Below are positions 3,475-30,064 of a stretch of DNA of 64,000 bases, one piece after another. The notes beneath the pieces were generated by a model. It made no database searches. It saw only the letters and a list, made by a program, of their open reading frames with translations, and was not told the origin of the DNA. Position 1 is the stretch's first letter. Every line of letters begins with the position of its first letter. The translations under genes and the position numbers were made by a program. Source of the DNA: a virus; the IMG/VR virus record IMGVR_UViG_3300040801_004314, positions 36,665 to 100,664 of that record, one strand, 5' to 3'.

Positions 3475-5103
3475 ATGAATAAACAAAGATTTAAAATAAT
3501 AAATGATATACTTCAAGAAAAGCCTACTAGATTAAGAGAGTCGTATTTTATTAAAAACTATAATGATGTCTATAATAAAATAGTAAAATATACTGAAGGC
3601 ATAGATTTACCTTTTAAACAAAGAATGTGGCACTGGATAAATGAACTACCGACTATTTATGTCTGTAAGTGTGGTAAACCTACTAGTTTCTATAAGAATT
3701 GGAAACATGGATATAGGAGTGCATGTTCACCAAAGTGCGCACAAACAAATGATAAAACCAAGGAAAAAAGAAGAAAAACTACATTAGAAAAATATGGCGT
3801 AGATAATATTGCTAAATTGGAAGAAATTAAAAAAAAGCAAGAGGAAACTAACATACAAAAGTATGGTCATAAATCTACATTTCAAAACGAAGAAGTTCAG
3901 AAAAAATGGAGAAAAACTATCGAAGATAGATATAGTGTAGATCATTATTTTAAAACTAATGAGTTTAAGAAAAAGGCTAAGAAAACATCTAAAAAAAAAT
4001 ACGGGAAAGAACATTACGTACAATCAAAATCATACAAAGAAAAACTTAAAGAAATTGGATTCAATGATATATTGAAACAAATAAATATCAATAAACATCT
4101 TAGGAAATATGATAATATAGGTTTAGAATTTATAGATTTAAGCGATAGAATATTAACATTAAAAGGTGAATGCGGACATCAATTTGAAATACATTATGAT
4201 TCTTTAAAACGAAGAATAGAGAATTCTTATGATTATTGCACTATATGTAATCCAGTTAATTCAGTACAATCACAAGATGAGAAAGTACTAATAAAGTGGT
4301 TAATGGAAAAAAATATAGATCTCGTAGAGAAGGATCGAAGCTTAGGTATTGAGCTAGATATATTAATACCTTCCAAGAAAATAGCAATAGAGTTTAATGG
4401 ATTATATTGGCATTCTGAATTATTTAAAAATAACAATTACCATTTAGACAAAACTACAATATGTAGAAACAATGATATAAGATTAATACACATATGGGAA
4501 GATGATTGGAAATACAATAAAACAATTGTAAAATCTATTATTTTGAATAGCCTTGGGCTGATTGAGAAAAAAGTATATTCTAGAAAATGTGAAATAACTA
4601 CCTTAAGTAACAAAGAAAAAAACTTATTTTTAGAAAAAAATCACATACAAGGGAAGTGTGTATCAAGTGTTAATTTGGCACTTATGTATAATAATGAAGT
4701 AGTCTCTGTTATGACATTTGGGAAACGCAAAATGAGTAATAAAAACGAATTTGAGTTAATAAGGTTTTGTAATAAAGTAAACAATGTAGTAATCGGTGGG
4801 GCTTCAAGATTATTTAACTATTTCATTAACAATTACCAAAGTGATCATATAATTTCTTTTGCTGATATATCTCATTTTGAAGGTGGTGTATATAAGAAAT
4901 TGGGATTTAAATTTGTACACAGGACTATCCCAAATTATTGGTGGGTAGTTAGTGGTATTAGGTTTCACCGCTTCACCTATAATAAAAAAAGGTTAGTGAA
5001 AGAAGGTGCTGATCCTAATAAAACCGAAGTTCAAATAATGTATGATAAAGGATATTTTAGAATATTTGGTTGTGGTCAAGATAAGTACGTTTATCATAGG
5101 TAA
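3475..5103 (+). CDS. Hef-like free-standing endonuclease: YGVDN repeats + Zn ribbon + Vsr/DUF559-like nuclease + C-terminal Mom-like GNAT domain
   Basis: KYGVDN repeats; CxC/CxxC; ELDILIPSKKIAIEFNGLYWH...IHIWEDDW; NHIQG...ELIRFC...GGASRLF...SFAD...YKKLGF. Confidence 0.75.
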   Translation: MNKQRFKIINDILQEKPTRLRESYFIKNYNDVYNKIVKYTEGIDLPFKQRMWHWINELPTIYVCKCGKPTSFYKNWKHGYRSACSPKCAQTNDKTKEKRRKTTLEKYGVDNIAKLEEIKKKQEETNIQKYGHKSTFQNEEVQKKWRKTIEDRYSVDHYFKTNEFKKKAKKTSKKKYGKEHYVQSKSYKEKLKEIGFNDILKQININKHLRKYDNIGLEFIDLSDRILTLKGECGHQFEIHYDSLKRRIENSYDYCTICNPVNSVQSQDEKVLIKWLMEKNIDLVEKDRSLGIELDILIPSKKIAIEFNGLYWHSELFKNNNYHLDKTTICRNNDIRLIHIWEDDWKYNKTIVKSIILNSLGLIEKKVYSRKCEITTLSNKEKNLFLEKNHIQGKCVSSVNLALMYNNEVVSVMTFGKRKMSNKNEFELIRFCNKVNNVVIGGASRLFNYFINNYQSDHIISFADISHFEGGVYKKLGFKFVHRTIPNYWWVVSGIRFHRFTYNKKRLVKEGADPNKTEVQIMYDKGYFRIFGCGQDKYVYHR

Positions 5104-6315: not shown

Positions 6316-6693
6316 ATGAAACACTTAAAACTGTGGGAGAATTTAAACGAAAATGGCGACTTTTATAGCAAATTTTGGATAGAGGCACTATCGGAAAAGT
6401 ACGGAACTTGTGAGATAGACGAATACAAACCAATTAAGCCATTATATGGTGGTGGTAAATTCTCACAAATAGGATATTTATGTAATGTAGAAGATAAAGA
6501 TGTGTCGAAATTTATATTAGAGGGTATTACAAATAATGGTAAATTTATACACTCAAGTATAATTACATTAGACCAAAATGGTGATGCACTATCACACGGC
6601 ACTATTTATATAGATAATACTAAAGGAGATACATATTCAGATAATATACTTAAAGTGGTTGATGAAATCGATAAATATATAGAAAATATGTAA
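6316..6693 (+). CDS. Hypothetical protein with MKHLKLWENLNE N-terminal (capsid-targeting-like) motif
   Basis: ORF preceded by TAATATATA at 6290-6298. Confidence 0.7.
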   Translation: MKHLKLWENLNENGDFYSKFWIEALSEKYGTCEIDEYKPIKPLYGGGKFSQIGYLCNVEDKDVSKFILEGITNNGKFIHSSIITLDQNGDALSHGTIYIDNTKGDTYSDNILKVVDEIDKYIENM

Positions 6694-6701
6694 AAATATA
6701 T

Positions 6702-6739
6702 AAACATTTTTCATAATTCATATATAATATATATATTTG
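6702..6739 (+). promoter_or_regulatory. Tandem promoters for tmRNA: phage AAAC-N15-TATATAA motif plus Bacteroidota-type -7 box TATATTTG
   Basis: AAAC at 6702, TATATAA at 6721, TATATTTG at 6732-6739, 12 nt before tmRNA G1. Confidence 0.65.
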
Positions 6740-6751
6740 CAAGATAACCAT

Positions 6752-7121
6752 GGGGAAGTTTAGAATAGATTTATGGTGAATTAGTAATTATGCAAGTATC
6801 GGATTGTTTTTTAACCGATTAATAAATTAAGTAACAATTTTTTTAAGCGGAAACGTAACAGAAGTAGGAACTCGTGAAGATGTAGTAGCGACTCTACAAA
6901 ACAACATGATCCAAGTAGAGGATCTAGCAACTGCCTAACAGTAGTTACTAAAAAATCTACAGTTGATCTACACAATTAAAAATGTAGGATGGTTTTTTAT
7001 ATTTTTAGAGTTTGTCAAAAAATTATATATTTTGTTTGTTTAGAAAAATAAACTAAACTTGTAAACGATTAGTTATTGATTACTGTTGAAGACAAGGTGG
7101 GCGGTACACCTTCTTCTCCAC
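6752..7121 (+). ncRNA. ssrA: tmRNA (one-piece); predicted tag (A)GNVTEVGTREDVVATLQNNMIQVEDLATA
   Basis: Acceptor stem GGGGAAG(6752-58)/CTTCTCC(7113-19) with G3.U70 and discriminator A. T arm AAGGTG-GGCGGTA-CACCTT. Helix 2 GCAAGT/ACTTGT. pk1 ATCGG/CCGAT plus ATTGTT/AACAAT. Tag ORF 6849-6938 follows TAAGC. Confidence 0.9.
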
Positions 7122-7126
7122 AAAAC

Positions 7127-7153
7127 AAAAACCCACCAAAAGGTGGGTTTTTT
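7127..7153 (+). terminator. Terminator after tmRNA
   Basis: AAAAACCCACC-aaaa-GGTGGGTTTTTT. Confidence 0.9.
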
Positions 7154-7174
7154 ATAAACTTCAAAAATTATAAA

Positions 7175-7291
7175 ATGAAAATATTAATATGTAAGCTATT
7201 TCATAAAAAATATCATAAAAGAGAATGGTATGGATGTGAGGGTGCAGAAGGAGCAAAAGATTATTATATAACATGCAGTAAATGCAATTAA
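7175..7291 (+). CDS. Small Cys/His (putative Zn-binding) protein, 38 aa
   Basis: MKILICKLFHKKYH...CSKCN with A-rich leader; the longer 7076 start overlaps the tmRNA and is spurious. Confidence 0.55.
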   Translation: MKILICKLFHKKYHKREWYGCEGAEGAKDYYITCSKCN

Positions 7292-7294
7292 ACT

Positions 7295-7591
7295 ATGAAT
7301 ACAGAACAAAAGCAACCAAGATGGATCAGAAAGGCATGGAGTATAGCCAATGTTATGCGATGGCTTTCTCGTAAAAGTGAACGAACCATTGAGGTTGAAA
7401 TACCAAAAGGGTTTATGAATTGTGGAGTTTGCATTTGTAACCATTTTATAGCCGACACAAACAATAGTGCAAATTGGGATACGATTAAATTCCCATTACC
7501 CAAACCTAAATACAAGTGGAATATTAAATGCTACACAGGTGATATTGATAAACCCGAAAAGCAAAGAGTAGTGCTGATTGATAAGTACTAG
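7295..7591 (+). CDS. Hypothetical protein; reads through a cassette core site (GTTATGC at 7352)
   Basis: 98-aa ORF followed by GCATAAC (7597-7603), complementary to the internal GTTATGC. Confidence 0.7.
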   Translation: MNTEQKQPRWIRKAWSIANVMRWLSRKSERTIEVEIPKGFMNCGVCICNHFIADTNNSANWDTIKFPLPKPKYKWNIKCYTGDIDKPEKQRVVLIDKY

Positions 7592-7634
7592 CTTGTGCAT
7601 AACATATTGTGTATGAACCTGTAAATTATAAAAA

Positions 7635-7745
7635 ATGAATTGGATTAAACGATTATTTAGTAAAAAAGAAACTACTAAGCAATGTGATACACACGTTATT
7701 GTGAGTAGTGCTTGTGAATGTGGTAGACAAAAAAATGCGGTGTAA
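7635..7745 (+). CDS. 36-aa ORF starting inside an attC-like site and crossing its right arm (possibly decayed)
   Basis: MNWIKRLFSKKETTKQCDTHVIVSSACECGRQKNAV*; the CDTHVIVSS segment is the site arm and core. Confidence 0.45.
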   Translation: MNWIKRLFSKKETTKQCDTHVIVSSACECGRQKNAV

Positions 7746-7792
7746 GAAGTGGGTTGTGTTTAAAAACAGGTATATGGTACACTTAGCATTAC

Positions 7793-7852
7793 TTACAACG
7801 GTTTGGATATGTACTGCATCCCGTAGGGTATAGCATATAGGTAATGTTATAC
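7793..7852. repeat. attC-like site, 60 bp
   Basis: TTACAAC-ggtttgg-ATATGTACTGCATCCC-gta-GGGTATAGCATAT-aggtaat-GTTATAC; hairpin with bulges. Confidence 0.7.
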
Positions 7853-7960
7853 CCTTTTTTTTGAGCGTTTGAAAAATAATTTACAGAAAATTGTATTTTA
7901 TCTGGTAGTTAATACAGAAAGCTGTATATTTGAAGTATAATAATTAAAACAAAAGAAATT

Positions 7961-8194
7961 ATGATAGTAATTTGCATACAAAATTTATATAAGTCAACAT
8001 ACGAATGTGATGTTTTTACAGAAGGCAACGAATATGAAATAATTGAAGAATATAAAAATAGAAGTAAAAATAAAATGTGTAGAGTGAAATCAGATATTAT
8101 TTTAGGTGATGGTGGTTTAGACTTTTATTTTGATGAGGGTGATAGCTTTCCTTATTATAACTTCAAGGATTATTTTAAAATAATATCTGATTAA
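7961..8194 (+). CDS. Small hypothetical cassette protein with its own host-type promoter (TATATTTG 7925-7932)
   Basis: 77-aa ORF with A-rich leader. Confidence 0.75.
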   Translation: MIVICIQNLYKSTYECDVFTEGNEYEIIEEYKNRSKNKMCRVKSDIILGDGGLDFYFDEGDSFPYYNFKDYFKIISD

Positions 8195-8196
8195 CT

Positions 8197-8322
8197 GTTT
8201 ATAGGGGTTGAGTGTATGATCAGTAGCCTACACGAACATTTGATAAATGAACAAAACTTTAAATTAATAACCGAGCAATAGTAAAAACGCCTAACGGCTA
8301 TTGCTTATGCACATTGTTAGGC
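8197..8322. repeat. attC-like site, left core degenerate
   Basis: Arms GTGTATGATCAGTAGCC (8212-28) / GGCTATTGCTTATGCAC (8296-8312), followed by GTTAGGC. Confidence 0.65.
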
Positions 8323-8332
8323 AACGTTTATT

Positions 8333-8545
8333 ATGAAATATAAAATAGGTGATAAAGTTTGGATAAAACCAATAGATGCTGGTGATTTAGAAGGTGTAGT
8401 AATAGGTTTTCAAAAGGTAGAACCTTATAATCCAATTATTGAGTTTGAATATTGCGGTGAAAAGAAAAGCAATGCCTTTGATTTAAATAGAATTAATCCT
8501 TTTGGTGATGGTAAGGTTAAGCCTGTGTATGTTAGGGTTATTTAA
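8333..8545 (+). CDS. Small cassette protein (SH3/KOW-like beta barrel, KYKIGDKV start)
   Basis: 70-aa ORF filling the space between GTTAGGC and ACCTAAC. Confidence 0.75.
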   Translation: MKYKIGDKVWIKPIDAGDLEGVVIGFQKVEPYNPIIEFEYCGEKKSNAFDLNRINPFGDGKVKPVYVRVI

Positions 8546-8549
8546 TGTT

Positions 8550-8681
8550 ACCTAACGTTAAAATATAAGAACAGTAGCGTGTTCACAAAAACAGACTGTT
8601 CAGGTTACGTGAACATTAGTAAATAATGAACAAAGTAATAGTTAAACACTGCCTAGCTATTATTTTTATATAGTGTTGGCA
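8550..8681. repeat. attC-like site, ~132 bp
   Basis: ACCTAAC; arms TATAAGAACAGTAGC (8564-78) / GCTATTATTTTTATA (8656-70); inner hairpin GTGTTCAC/GTGAACAT; GTTGGCA. Confidence 0.72.
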
Positions 8682-8698
8682 GTAGTTAATTTTTAATT

Positions 8699-8917
8699 AT
8701 GAAAAAATTTTTATTAGTAAAGCTGAAAGAAGAAATACGTGTTAGTGGTGGTTGTTCTCCAGATGACCCTGAATTTGCTTATGTAGTAGGCGATTGTTTT
8801 AAAAGCACAGGGAAGTATTTTGCAGATAAGAAAGAAGCTCTTAAAGAAGCAAAAGCAAAAACTTTAAAAAACCAAGAAACAGAAGTGTTTGGTGTAATTA
8901 AAATAGATATGCCTTAA
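8699..8917 (+). CDS. Small hypothetical cassette protein
   Basis: 72-aa ORF flanked by a 15/16-matching inverted repeat whose right copy overlaps the stop codon. Confidence 0.75.
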   Translation: MKKFLLVKLKEEIRVSGGCSPDDPEFAYVVGDCFKSTGKYFADKKEALKEAKAKTLKNQETEVFGVIKIDMP

Positions 8918-9124
8918 TTACTGCCAACAATATTATATACACACCTTTTATATAAATTATTCATAACCAGCTAATTAATATTATTAAAACAAAAGGGTTA
9001 TAAATATTTGTGTTTAAAAGTTTATATTCTTAATTATGATCCAAGTATAAATGTATCATATTTATACTACATCAATAAACTTCACAAAAAATACACCTAT
9101 AAGACCAAAAGGCTTTTTATTCAT

Positions 9125-9454
9125 ATGAGTAAACATAATAACATACATTGGATAAAACAAAGGGAATATTATAGATTAGAAAAATACTCTCAATATACTA
9201 CTGATTTTGAATATTTAACTGGTAATTTTTTAATTACCTCATCAGAATACGCAGAAGTATCGAAAAAATTAAATGTTCTGTTTTATGATAAAAAGTGTAG
9301 GTGTGAAAACTATTCAAAAGCACCTAAATATTTTAGAAAAAAATTAAATCGAACACAGAGATATAAATCAAAAAGAAATATTAGAAAAATATTAAATGGA
9401 GAAAATGATAAACTTACACCTAGGTATAAAGGCGCAGATTACGATTGGTGGTAA
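9125..9454 (+). CDS. Basic hypothetical protein
   Basis: Likely ATG at 9125 (MSKHNN...); the annotated TTG start runs through a hairpin region. Confidence 0.6.
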   Translation: MSKHNNIHWIKQREYYRLEKYSQYTTDFEYLTGNFLITSSEYAEVSKKLNVLFYDKKCRCENYSKAPKYFRKKLNRTQRYKSKRNIRKILNGENDKLTPRYKGADYDWW

Positions 9455-9469
9455 AAACATATACAAATT

Positions 9470-9976
9470 ATGATTGGTGTTTTTAGGGGCGAAAATCACT
9501 TCTTATCTAATTTCTACCCATGTGTTATAAACCATGATGGGATTAGATATCCAAGTGTAGAACACTATTATATAGCATTAAAGGCAAATAGTAAATTGGT
9601 TAAGTTTAATGGCAAGGATTATAAATTAAGAGACTTTAGGTTAATGGTTTCTGGTTTAGATAATCCAGGACTTGCTAAAAAAGTTGGAAAAGAAATAATA
9701 GCTAGAAAAGATTGGGATGAGCATAGGATGATAGTGTTAAAGGATGGTATATACGAAAAGTTTAAAGATCCTGTTCTTAGAAAGAAACTCATAGATACTG
9801 GTAAACAAGAATTAGTTGAGGGTAACTGGTGGCATGATAATAATTTTGGATCATGCTTTTGTGATAAATGTAAAGATAAGAAAGGAAAGAATAAATTAGG
9901 GAAGATAATAATGAAAGTGCGTGATGAGATAACAGGTAATGGTAAAAGAGGTTTAGAGCAAATATTTTTTAAATAA
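9470..9976 (+). CDS. NADAR (YbiA-like) family protein
   Basis: FLSNFYP, YPSVEHYY, AKKVGK, KF, L..TG..ELVEGN.WHD, G.NKLGKIIMKVR. Confidence 0.9.
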   Translation: MIGVFRGENHFLSNFYPCVINHDGIRYPSVEHYYIALKANSKLVKFNGKDYKLRDFRLMVSGLDNPGLAKKVGKEIIARKDWDEHRMIVLKDGIYEKFKDPVLRKKLIDTGKQELVEGNWWHDNNFGSCFCDKCKDKKGKNKLGKIIMKVRDEITGNGKRGLEQIFFK

Positions 9977-10036
9977 TTGTGTTAAATTTAACAACAAAAC
10001 ACATTTAAAGCTATATAAATAAAAAATAATTTTTAT

Positions 10037-11245
10037 ATGGCAAAGAAAAAAAGTAAAGAATTTGAATTTAGTAAAGTAGGTACTATATTAGATAATATAT
10101 CCAAAAAAGTTCCAATTCGAATAGAAAAAGAAGTAACCAAGAGAACGTTTATTTCAACTGGTGTTTACTTACTAGATGCAGCACTATCTGCACATATGTT
10201 AGAGGGTGGTATCCCAACTAATAGAATATCAGCTTTTGCTGGGGAATCAGGAAGTGGTAAATCATTTTTAGCATACTCAGTTGTTAAGAACGCACAGGCT
10301 AAGGGATATTCGTGTATTTATATTGATACAGAGCAATCAATTGACTTAGAAGATCTACCAAACTATGGTATTGACACTGACTTGAACAAGTTTAGATTAA
10401 TTCGCTCCAACAAAGTAGAGGATATAAACATTACCTTAACTCAGTTAGTTGATGATTTGAAAGAGCAAAAATTAGCAGGTGTTAAATTACCAAAAATATT
10501 ACTTGTCTTAGACTCACTAGGTCAGATGGCATCTAATAAAGAAAAAGAAGACTTGCTAAAAGGTGATATTAAGCAAGATATGACTAAAGCAAAAGCACTT
10601 AGCTCTATGTTTAGAAGTTTAAATATGGATTTAGGGTTATTGGATATTCCTTTCTTAGTGATAAACCAAACTTATAAAACTCTTGATATGTTTCCTAAGG
10701 AAATGCTAAGGGGTGGTAACGGTCTTTTATATTCTGCTTCTGTTATTGGGTTCTTATCAAAATCAAAACTTAAGACAGGCAATGAAGATGATATGGACTT
10801 AGGCTCATCGGGTATTAATGTTCTATTTAAAACTTCTAAAAACAGACTTGCTAAACCTAAAAAGATAAGATTCGATATATCATTTGTTGAAGGCATGAAT
10901 CCTTACTCAGGTCTAGAAGGCTTCTGTAGACCTGAATTCTTTGATCAGATTGGGATAGCAAAGGGTAAAATGGAAGTAGATAAAGAAACTGGTGAGATGA
11001 AATTTAAGCCAGGTGGTAATAAGTATTATGTTAGGCATTTAGATAAGTCCTTTTTCTTAAAGAAGCTACACAAACCCGAAATTTTCACACAGGAAGTTTT
11101 AGAAAATATGTGTCCTATTGTTAATGATTACTTTAGGTTTAAATCAACTGATGAGTTAGAAGAACTTGATAAAGAGTTTGAAGAAAAGCTTGATGAGGTA
11201 GATAACTTCACAGACTCTACTGATGCAGAAGATTTATTTGATTAA
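10037..11245 (+). CDS. uvsX: RecA-like recombinase (UvsX)
   Basis: ISTG...LDAALS, Walker A GESGSGKS, YIDTE, LVLDSLG, DMTKAK, GGNGLLYSAS. Confidence 0.92.
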   Translation: MAKKKSKEFEFSKVGTILDNISKKVPIRIEKEVTKRTFISTGVYLLDAALSAHMLEGGIPTNRISAFAGESGSGKSFLAYSVVKNAQAKGYSCIYIDTEQSIDLEDLPNYGIDTDLNKFRLIRSNKVEDINITLTQLVDDLKEQKLAGVKLPKILLVLDSLGQMASNKEKEDLLKGDIKQDMTKAKALSSMFRSLNMDLGLLDIPFLVINQTYKTLDMFPKEMLRGGNGLLYSASVIGFLSKSKLKTGNEDDMDLGSSGINVLFKTSKNRLAKPKKIRFDISFVEGMNPYSGLEGFCRPEFFDQIGIAKGKMEVDKETGEMKFKPGGNKYYVRHLDKSFFLKKLHKPEIFTQEVLENMCPIVNDYFRFKSTDELEELDKEFEEKLDEVDNFTDSTDAEDLFD

Positions 11246-11300
11246 TATAAAGTTTACTTAACTTAGTAAACTGGTGGATGTCGGACAAAAGTCAGACCCT

Positions 11301-11331
11301 AAAAAGGCTCTATTATTTAGAGCCTTTTTTT
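11301..11331. terminator. Bidirectional terminator between convergent genes
   Basis: AAAAAGGCTCTA-ttatt-TAGAGCCTTTTTTT. Confidence 0.8.
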
Positions 11332-29966: not shown

Positions 29967-30064
29967 AAAGTATATATAAAAAAAATTATATAAATTGTAT
30001 AAAAAGAGGTAAAATCATAATTAAATAATAATATATATCTTATACAAAAATAATCACACATACA

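Follow-up and report, generated by a model that had tools for sequence, protein, structure and literature searches.

Integrons are the classic bacterial device for collecting and reshuffling single genes and are defined by the IntI integrase, with attC recombination sites that usually measure 57-141 nt. Recombinases of the Xer type can act on folded DNA, as with XerCD and the CTX phage, where the hairpin consists of one DNA strand of the mobile element. Elements that depend on Xer insert their entire genome into the chromosomal dif site. Integrase-less clusters of attC sites (CALINs) have been reported in 17 phages including Polaribacter phage P12002L (PMC9892861), and PeSL cassettes, in which an early promoter is joined to a terminator, have been described for T4-like phages (PMC2839356, PMC4122927). 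Earlier work found only In0 elements in Bacteroidetes, and standard tools find almost no integrons in Bacteroidota (PMC9024848). The stretch analyzed here (64,000 nt, hereafter the window) makes up the right-hand part of a 100.7-kb IMG/VR contig with a CheckV completeness of 22%, and it contains two attachment-site-like elements, A and B, lying between small genes. We consider it likely, with a probability of roughly 0.7, that elements A and B are recombination sites of an integron-like cassette system that is common to Bacteroidota and their phages. The locus is classed by its layout as an integron-like variant and not as a canonical IntI integron, because the recombinase linked to the family failed the IntI test and the sites lack extrahelical bases. 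The array in the window is small, partly decayed and without a recombinase.

Structure and spread of the element family

When the region was compared with isolated phages by BLAST, the only matches were three short intergenic ones, which lie in Tenacibaculum phage JQ, Cellulophaga phage phi18:3 and Flavobacterium phages. Element A is 77% identical to the phi18:3 intergenic element and element B is 77% identical to an element of phage JQ. When A and B were aligned with these two, the sequences fell into two types that differ by paired changes. A further 21 true copies were found in viral contigs with a degenerate 19-base pattern, and a covariance model (R1) was built from the element copies. 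Arrays of four to six or more sites spaced 300-400 nt apart were found in five viral contigs (L013, L015, L022, L025 and L026), and arrays were also found in the phages JQ, phi18:3 and P12002L. In bacteria, the exact 23-base pattern of the type 1 site matched at least 81 Bacteroidota genome contigs, where the model revealed arrays, and 82 of the 101 sampled genomes of one host family matched the model, with one array extending over more than 57 kb of a single contig. No further strong copy beyond A and B was found by the model across the 100-kb contig. Rfam scans of the window at gathering thresholds, and of positions 6800-9200 at E<=10, returned nothing on either element and gave only sub-threshold terminator-like hits near 7127-7152.

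The fold was tested on a MAFFT alignment of 21 sequences as a long hairpin consisting of a 16-bp inner stem and, outside it, an AAC/GTT helix of 5 bp. The inner stem was found to be 98.5% paired with five compensatory pairs, and two of its positions are G.U in 20-21 of the 21 sequences. Among 53 model-aligned copies, 15 of the 16 inner pairs have changed on both sides and none of 500 shuffles reached the observed values, although this larger alignment was fitted to the model and is hence biased towards it. The outer boxes take the form AT-N7-AAC and GTT-N7-GT, with AAC present in 47 of 49 sites and GTT in all 49, and they add another conserved G.T on the wobble strand. Sites are 120-165 nt long. 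No conserved bulges (extrahelical bases) were seen in the folded sites; the two invariant G.T wobbles, together with the one in the outer boxes, give the sites their strand asymmetry in place of such bases. With the long hairpin imposed, the family mean is -8.6 kcal/mol on the + strand compared to -5.2 kcal/mol on the - strand, and the respective values for element B are -6.6 and -2.4 kcal/mol.

In the proposed site, an imperfect palindrome of about 150 nt, the AT-N7-AAC outer box would be followed by a short spacer that stays unpaired and by the first arm of a 16-bp inner stem, which contains two conserved G.T pairs. A variable loop (about 70 nt) would then lead to the second arm, and two further bases would separate this arm from the GTT-N7-GT box. 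The wobble strand would fold better as single-stranded DNA because every wobble sits on that strand, and in this phage the wobble strand is the + strand, the one that encodes the genes. The original prediction had named the bottom strand as the folding strand, which does not apply here as the gene-sense strand folds better.

A local hairpin (GCAATAG/CTATTGC) with a loop pseudoknot (GCCTAAC/GTTAGGC) was also tried as the fold of the family. It pairs well in type 1 elements but shows almost no covariation and is broken in L034, which has a different GTT box, and it was rejected as the fold and regarded merely as an internal mimic of the 5' half-site. The variable loop of the phage-type elements, at 8274-8296 in A and 8634-8655 in B, holds this small copy of the 5' half-site in reverse order. 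Its AATAG is complementary to the 3' inner arm, and its GCCTAAC or ACTGCC is complementary to the GTT box. These pairings could produce an alternative, pseudoknotted hairpin. The host elements have different loops.

The genes lying between the elements were found to carry a cassette signature. At about 20 loci the element is followed by a different, unrelated gene for a small protein (49-185 aa), and at the end of every one of these genes the 10-17 bases located just after the GTT on its upstream side recur as their reverse complement, even where the core is the variant GTTATACGC...GCGTATAAC. Out of a maximum of 12, box complementarity averages 9.6 between the two sides of a gene (n=21), compared to 6.5 between the boxes of one element (n=49) and 6.3 for the remaining pairs (permutation p<1e-4), so that the matching of cores across a gene and not within a site, first proposed for the window, holds for the whole family. 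Both intact cassettes of the window obey this relation. A cassette would comprise one small gene and two flanking boxes, and the mutual complementarity of these boxes is as expected if one folded site is split by a crossover at the outer boxes.

Evidence of exchange comes from the contigs L025 and L026, which are otherwise dissimilar but have three modules in common (284-367 nt, 98.5-100% identity) in a different order. These shared stretches begin at AAC and end at AACG or GTT, and L026 in addition has an empty cassette with 32 nt between its boxes. The 72-aa cassette of the window recurs in another viral contig (L186) at 85% identity, with its two boxes kept and with different flanking elements. 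Such identities indicate that whole modules bounded by AAC and GTT have moved between otherwise unrelated phage contigs. In three elements of phage P12002L (31104-31337, 32478-32718 and 39502-39735 in L035), a small open reading frame (ORF) was observed inside the inner-stem loop, running through the 3' arm and the GTT box, and genes can therefore occupy either kind of loop.

The original prediction had described five consecutive gene units in the window, each enclosed by a core and its reverse complement, and all of the strings it quoted were found in place. Two of the five (genes 8333-8545 and 8699-8917) stand, while the other three fail as gene units. In the test used, a 12-mer score at the gene start and stop windows was compared with dinucleotide shuffles. 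The pair 8674/8914, which brackets gene 8699-8917 with 15 of 16 Watson-Crick pairs and one G.T, was matched by only 0.7% of the shuffles and extends to 20 nt at 90% in an inverted-repeat search, whereas the pair 8316/8546 around gene 8333-8545 (9 of 11 and one G.T) is marginal when taken alone, with 9% of the shuffles reaching it. Between the two boxes of this first cassette, 10 of 12 positions are complementary if wobble pairs are counted. The three remaining genes have start and stop windows at chance level, as exemplified by gene 7295-7591 (48% of the shuffles).

The pair 7698/7785 does show features of the family, with 12 of 15 pairs and two G.T, an AT-N7-AAC-GG box and a wobble at the conserved position, but only 72 nt are enclosed, its 5' arm falls within the 36-aa ORF 7635-7745, and it is not a gene unit. 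Its resemblance is to the empty cassette in L026. The pair 7352/7597 is only a 7-mer, whose 5' arm lies 57 nt inside ORF 7295-7591, and the GTTATAC at 7846 that had been taken as the start of a unit actually belongs to a terminator-like hairpin (7825-7855, followed by a T run), of which it forms the 3' arm; both of these proposed units are chance or decay. The intergenic elements of the form AAC-spacer-hairpin-spacer-GTT are real in the case of A and B and decayed at the other sites.

Array-linked recombinase and alternative explanations

In all nine host genomes that could be judged, the best IntI/Xer-like gene was found 0.8-14 kb from the nearest listed array site and in identical geometry, and in a tenth genome it lies at a contig end. 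This host recombinase has 373-378 aa. Among the NCBIfam models it fits the XerA-type 'tyrosine recombinase/integron integrase' family best (210-221 bits; cut-off 220), and its closest solved structure is XerA. The IntI model TIGR02249 gives 178-188 bits, which is under the cut-off of 265, and aligns in two stretches where about 17-20 residues replace model positions 181-239, the IntI-specific insert. Several tests place the array-adjacent recombinase nearer to XerA than to IntI. In a survey of tyrosine recombinases, the IntI insert was not fully conserved in the 'integron-like' group (PMC8138268). Two of the 22 array-bearing phage records contain a compact homologue (273-277 aa, 43% identity) at about 300-640 nt from the last site, and a third record holds a broken fragment of it. 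The tyrosine recombinase near the phi18:3 array shows no homology to the array-linked enzyme at E<=1e-5.

The orientation of the genes relative to the wobble strand differs between the bacterial and phage arrays. In the bacterial contigs 55 genes are antisense to the wobble strand, eight are sense and seven are unclear, whereas in the phages 27 are sense, none is antisense and 16 are unclear. The strand asymmetry follows the element and not the transcript, which argues for a role at the DNA level over one at the RNA level. It is this transcription-independent asymmetry, together with the link to a tyrosine recombinase, that leads us to favor DNA-level recombination sites. By ORF inspection alone, the cargo of the host cassettes includes addiction-module-like pairs, a methyltransferase with a restriction-like neighbor, and lipoproteins, and looks like the usual cargo of chromosomal integrons.

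The best surviving alternative is that the elements are transcript-level or regulatory intergenic structures, such as processing stems, terminators or stems closing a gene 5' to 3', which spread and shuffle only by homologous recombination in their conserved arms, as has been proposed for PeSL, with no dedicated recombinase. We regard this as unlikely, although it has several points in its favor. PeSL provides a precedent (PMC2839356, PMC4122927), all of the phage G.U wobbles are on the sense strand, where a stem of 12-17 bp could close each gene, and the block that carries the array follows a terminator and holds a composite of a terminator and a promoter-like sequence. It would also fit the absence of a recombinase homologue from most array phages (20 of the 22 records), and the occurrence of module ends at both boxes.

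These last two observations weigh against recombination sites as well, the second because without a single fixed end the crossover point cannot be fixed and because homologous exchange within the conserved arms could yield the same pattern of module ends. Further observations count on the same side. No tyrosine recombinase or IntI was found in the 100-kb contig. Free folding of the single sequences misses the long hairpin for both A and B (Z-scores of -0.4 to -1.9 on both strands), and element A is energetically poor (+1.0 kcal/mol) even with this hairpin imposed. The insertion that brought the array ends in the T-tract of a terminator and not at GTT or AAC. The 72-aa cassette gene is missing from the 301 host-family genomes searched, and there is therefore no sign of phage-host cassette sharing for this gene. 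Finally, P12002L_attC1, the only site with this architecture that has been published, is the one of six sites for which no IntI1 recombinant was verified (PMC9892861), a result that says nothing about an Xer-like enzyme.

The regulatory explanation in turn has difficulty with the bacterial arrays, where the wobble strand is mostly antisense to the genes so that the asymmetry is not bound to mRNA, and with the presence of one particular tyrosine recombinase beside the arrays of all nine host genomes and two phages. In addition, no canonical promoter box TAnnTTTG was found on the + strand inside element A or B (regex scan), and the identity of the shared modules stops exactly at AAC or GTT.

A second alternative, in which A and B belong to a canonical integron array with true attC sites served by a host IntI integrase, had been put forward in the original prediction and seems to us very improbable. 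Part of that proposal stands, as the sites are imperfect palindromes homologous to those of recombinase-adjacent arrays, their AAC/GTT outer boxes are invariant with some of them fitting RYYYAAC / GTTRRRY, the host cargo looks typical of chromosomal integrons on ORF inspection, and HattCI has called a P12002L site of this architecture (PMC9892861). The identity of the enzyme does not stand, since the linked recombinase falls well below the IntI cut-off, has only the short stretch of residues at the insert position and finds its best solved relative in XerA. The sites are also longer than usual and carry wobbles in place of extrahelical bases, the P12002L_attC1 result with IntI1 speaks against it, and IntegronFinder 2.0 named only one complete integron in Bacteroidetes proper, that of Salinibacter ruber (PMC9024848). 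Miniature transposon-like units with terminal inverted repeats, or chance repeats in AT-rich DNA, are the least credible explanation, for although three of the five claimed units are at the shuffle chance level and the elements are short, repeated and palindromic, the boxes vary between cassettes except for GTT/AAC, which misfits a sequence-specific transposase, no target duplications were found, and the family-wide statistics exclude chance (model E-values 1e-22 to 1e-26).

Returning to recombination sites, the enzyme would be an XerA-like tyrosine recombinase encoded at the array end in host chromosomes and, in its compact form, in some phages. We infer that the recombinase acts on these sites, that they fold as single strands and that the crossover falls at the outer boxes. 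As the contig codes for no recombinase, supply of the enzyme in trans, which had been suggested from the start, is the only option; activity in this phage would need a host enzyme or a gene in the unsequenced part (about 78%) of the phage genome. We saw no evidence that anything is still recombining in this phage.

On a wider scale we lean towards the view, though with less confidence than for the sites themselves, that an undescribed integron-like capture system run by a small Xer-like recombinase without the IntI domain is common to the Flavobacteriaceae, other Bacteroidota and their phages, whose range extends from siphoviruses of 40 kb up to jumbo phages. In the long hairpin sites G.T wobbles, and not bulged bases, would mark the active strand, the phage cargo would lie on the strand opposite to that used in the hosts, and the phages would hold a viral pool of swappable early genes. 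The cargo of such a pool would include methyltransferases and ORFans that may counter host defence.

The inserted block and its surroundings

The contig codes for a RecA/UvsX-like protein, a ribonucleotide reductase and an NADAR protein. Relatives identified through the RecA-like protein lie on contigs of up to 476 kb, which makes a jumbo phage plausible, and the DNA matches of the region point to hosts of the Flavobacteriia type.

Comparison with the four closest relatives (L038, L039, L040 and L079) shows that positions 6693-7168 and 9320-11305 of the window are conserved in them, and that the 1.95 kb between these is replaced by about 17 nt, which in the junction alignment link the terminator directly to the start codon of the homologue of gene 9125-9454. 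A model scan of 42 relatives (677 kb in total, around the RecA-like gene) found no element. Insertion of the whole block as one site-specific event was considered and rejected, as its ends lie in the terminator T-tract, and for this same reason the array is taken to have come as a passenger inside a larger block. The two intact cassettes, whose 70-aa and 72-aa genes are ORFans, entered within this block together with the decayed remnants. The original prediction had expected relatives to differ by gain or loss of units at GTT cores. This is seen in other phages, where modules have moved at AAC/GTT, but not in this lineage, in which the block is the sole indel against the nearest relatives and there is no evidence of cassette traffic in the sequences compared. 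The features of the block are listed in Table 1.

Table 1. Features annotated in and next to the inserted block (window positions).
Feature	Position	Strand	Details
Intrinsic terminator-like hairpin	7127-7152		Closes a conserved non-coding stretch; left border of the inserted block; from terminator scan and junction alignment
Inserted block	7156-9116	+	About 1.95 kb; holds all small genes and elements; missing from closest relatives
ORF	7175-7291	+	38 aa
ORF	7295-7591	+	98 aa
AAC-type box CTTGTGCATAAC and half inner-stem arm GTGTATGAAC	7592-7618	+	Directly after the stop of ORF 7295-7591
ORF	7635-7745	+	36 aa
Box pair	7698-7799	+	Boxes 7698-7712 / 7785-7799; 72 nt enclosed; read as empty or decayed cassette
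Decayed short-form element	7772-7862	+	14.7 bits, E 0.05, filters off; 3' part is hairpin 7825-7855 with T run
Putative -7 box TATATTTG	7925-7932	+	Bacteroidota -7 box TAnnTTTG; sole + strand match in 6900-9200 (regex scan)
ORFan gene	7961-8194	+	77 aa; no Pfam above cut-off, no PHROG
Element A, attachment-site-like	8177-8332	+	124.5 bits, E 1e-26; inner stem 8212-8227 / 8297-8312; GTT box 8316-8327; slightly decayed, with 5' AAC box displaced and mismatches in inner stem
Cassette 1	8316-8556	+	GTT box 8316-8327; gene 8333-8545 (70 aa); AAC box 8545-8556
Element B, attachment-site-like, sequence type 2	8530-8691	+	105.2 bits, E 6e-22; AAC box 8545-8556; inner stem 8563-8578 / 8656-8671; GTT box 8675-8689
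Cassette 2	8675-8928	+	GTT box 8675-8689; gene 8699-8917 (72 aa); AAC box 8914-8928
AT-rich remnant	8929-9116	+	After the last cassette; truncated right end of array
Next gene	9125-9454	+	

None of the seven small proteins encoded between 7160 and the gene at 9125 onwards has a Pfam match above the family cut-off or a PHROG match, and the best Pfam signal among them is a weak one to DUF6472 (19 bits; cut-off 27). The 70-aa protein of cassette 1 has metagenomic homologues. One homologue of its gene (74% identical, positions 2501-2710 of the 360-kb phage contig L185) is an ordinary operon gene without boxes, which may represent the uncaptured state of the cassette 1 gene.

The remnants of the array were observed on both sides of the intact part. 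Comparison with the family consensus identified 7592-7603 as a genuine AAC-type box and 7592-7618 as the 5' part of a decayed element, and a weak model match was found close by (7610-7714; 10.8 bits, E 0.46). To the right of the last cassette, positions 8929-9116 hold no intact element and gave no model match better than E 2 with the filters off. The 3' part of gene 7961-8194 contains a perfect 17-nt inverted repeat (8088-8104 / 8176-8192) with arms 71 nt apart. The second arm abuts the AAC at 8193-8195 just upstream of element A, and the repeat has no wobble and does not fit AT-N7-AAC. It may be a relic of another cassette boundary that is now read through by the ORF.

The -7 box TATATTTG is likely the promoter for the genes from 7961 to 8917, a function assigned by its match to the Bacteroidota box, and as it is the only such box on the + strand of the scanned region, the two cassettes are probably read from this single upstream promoter. 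The stretch 7845-7972, which leads from the terminator to this promoter in front of gene 7961, shares 74% identity with an intergenic stretch of Flavobacterium siphoviruses (Muminvirus). The inserted block therefore holds shared non-coding modules of two kinds.

Two further features were observed to the left of the block. The stretch 6693-7168 (about 470 nt), which ends in the terminator, contains no convincing ORF, is 87% identical to positions 6610-7088 of L038 and is more conserved than the flanking genes, with 69-72% matches to two 630-640-kb uncultured phage records. It may be a non-coding RNA; only sub-threshold Rfam hits were found around its terminator. The protein encoded at 3475-5103 (542 aa) has a DUF7487 region of KYG-type repeats and a C-terminal part that resembles a nuclease or homing-endonuclease module, and its homologue in the closest relatives has 631 aa.

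Comparison with known systems

For the window alone the finding is modest, being a small, partly decayed and recombinase-less array in a larger insertion. If the Xer-like enzyme does recombine these sites, cassette capture would have evolved or persisted with a simpler recombinase, and it would be common in a major marine phylum, to judge from the proportion of sampled genomes with matches, and would reach viruses including lytic-type jumbo phages. It would also offer a new reading of the variable early-gene regions in phages and explain how small ORFan and methyltransferase genes move between unrelated phages. The phages JQ, phi18:3 and P12002L provide cultured systems in which this could be tested. 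No description of this element family was found in full-text literature searches.

The original prediction was not aware of such an array as a standard described feature of lytic T4-like jumbo phages, but integrase-less clusters of attachment sites were already published for virulent phages (PMC9892861). By its layout, with two strong sites and no recombinase, the locus would fit a CALIN, and both are made up of attC-like clusters among small genes and methyltransferase genes. In phage P12002L, attC1 (30005-30059, minus strand) has a box-stem-box design equal to the short form of the family. The difference lies in extent, as two P12002L sites were called in that study, one of them on the opposite strand, where model R1 finds nine more, and the element family, the host arrays and the Xer-like recombinase are not described there (PMC9892861).

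The array is similar to the PeSL cassettes of T4-like phages in having small ORFans in a variable region with stem-loop intergenic motifs at the end points of indels and shuffling. PeSL, however, is thought to act by homologous recombination, whereas A and B lack a promoter box, form a long hairpin that covaries, and belong to a family tied to a tyrosine recombinase. Only the stretch 7825-7932 resembles a PeSL-type composite of promoter and terminator, and a sigma-70-type promoter scan was not enriched (36 sites compared to 29 expected). Xer-dependent elements that integrate at dif also differ from the window family, as they form no gene-cassette arrays.

The family also resembles classical integrons, above all the sedentary chromosomal ones with the 'inverted integrase' layout. 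In both, the cassettes of an array share one orientation, mostly contain a single gene and lack canonical promoter boxes of their own. The sites of both are imperfect palindromes in which the outer boxes read AAC...GTT, a spacer is left unpaired and the loop is variable; one strand folds better, and the boxes at the cassette ends are complementary. A tyrosine recombinase lies at one end of the array, and the genes of the host arrays are antisense to the folding strand, as is the case with attC bottom strands. On the other hand, the recombinase of the family lacks the IntI-specific insert and is closest to XerA, its sites are at or above the usual attC length range, have an inner stem of 16 bp and show conserved G.T wobbles where attC has extrahelical bases, its outer boxes extend to 12-17 nt, no attI site was identified, although none was sought in the host arrays, and its phage genes are carried on the folding strand.

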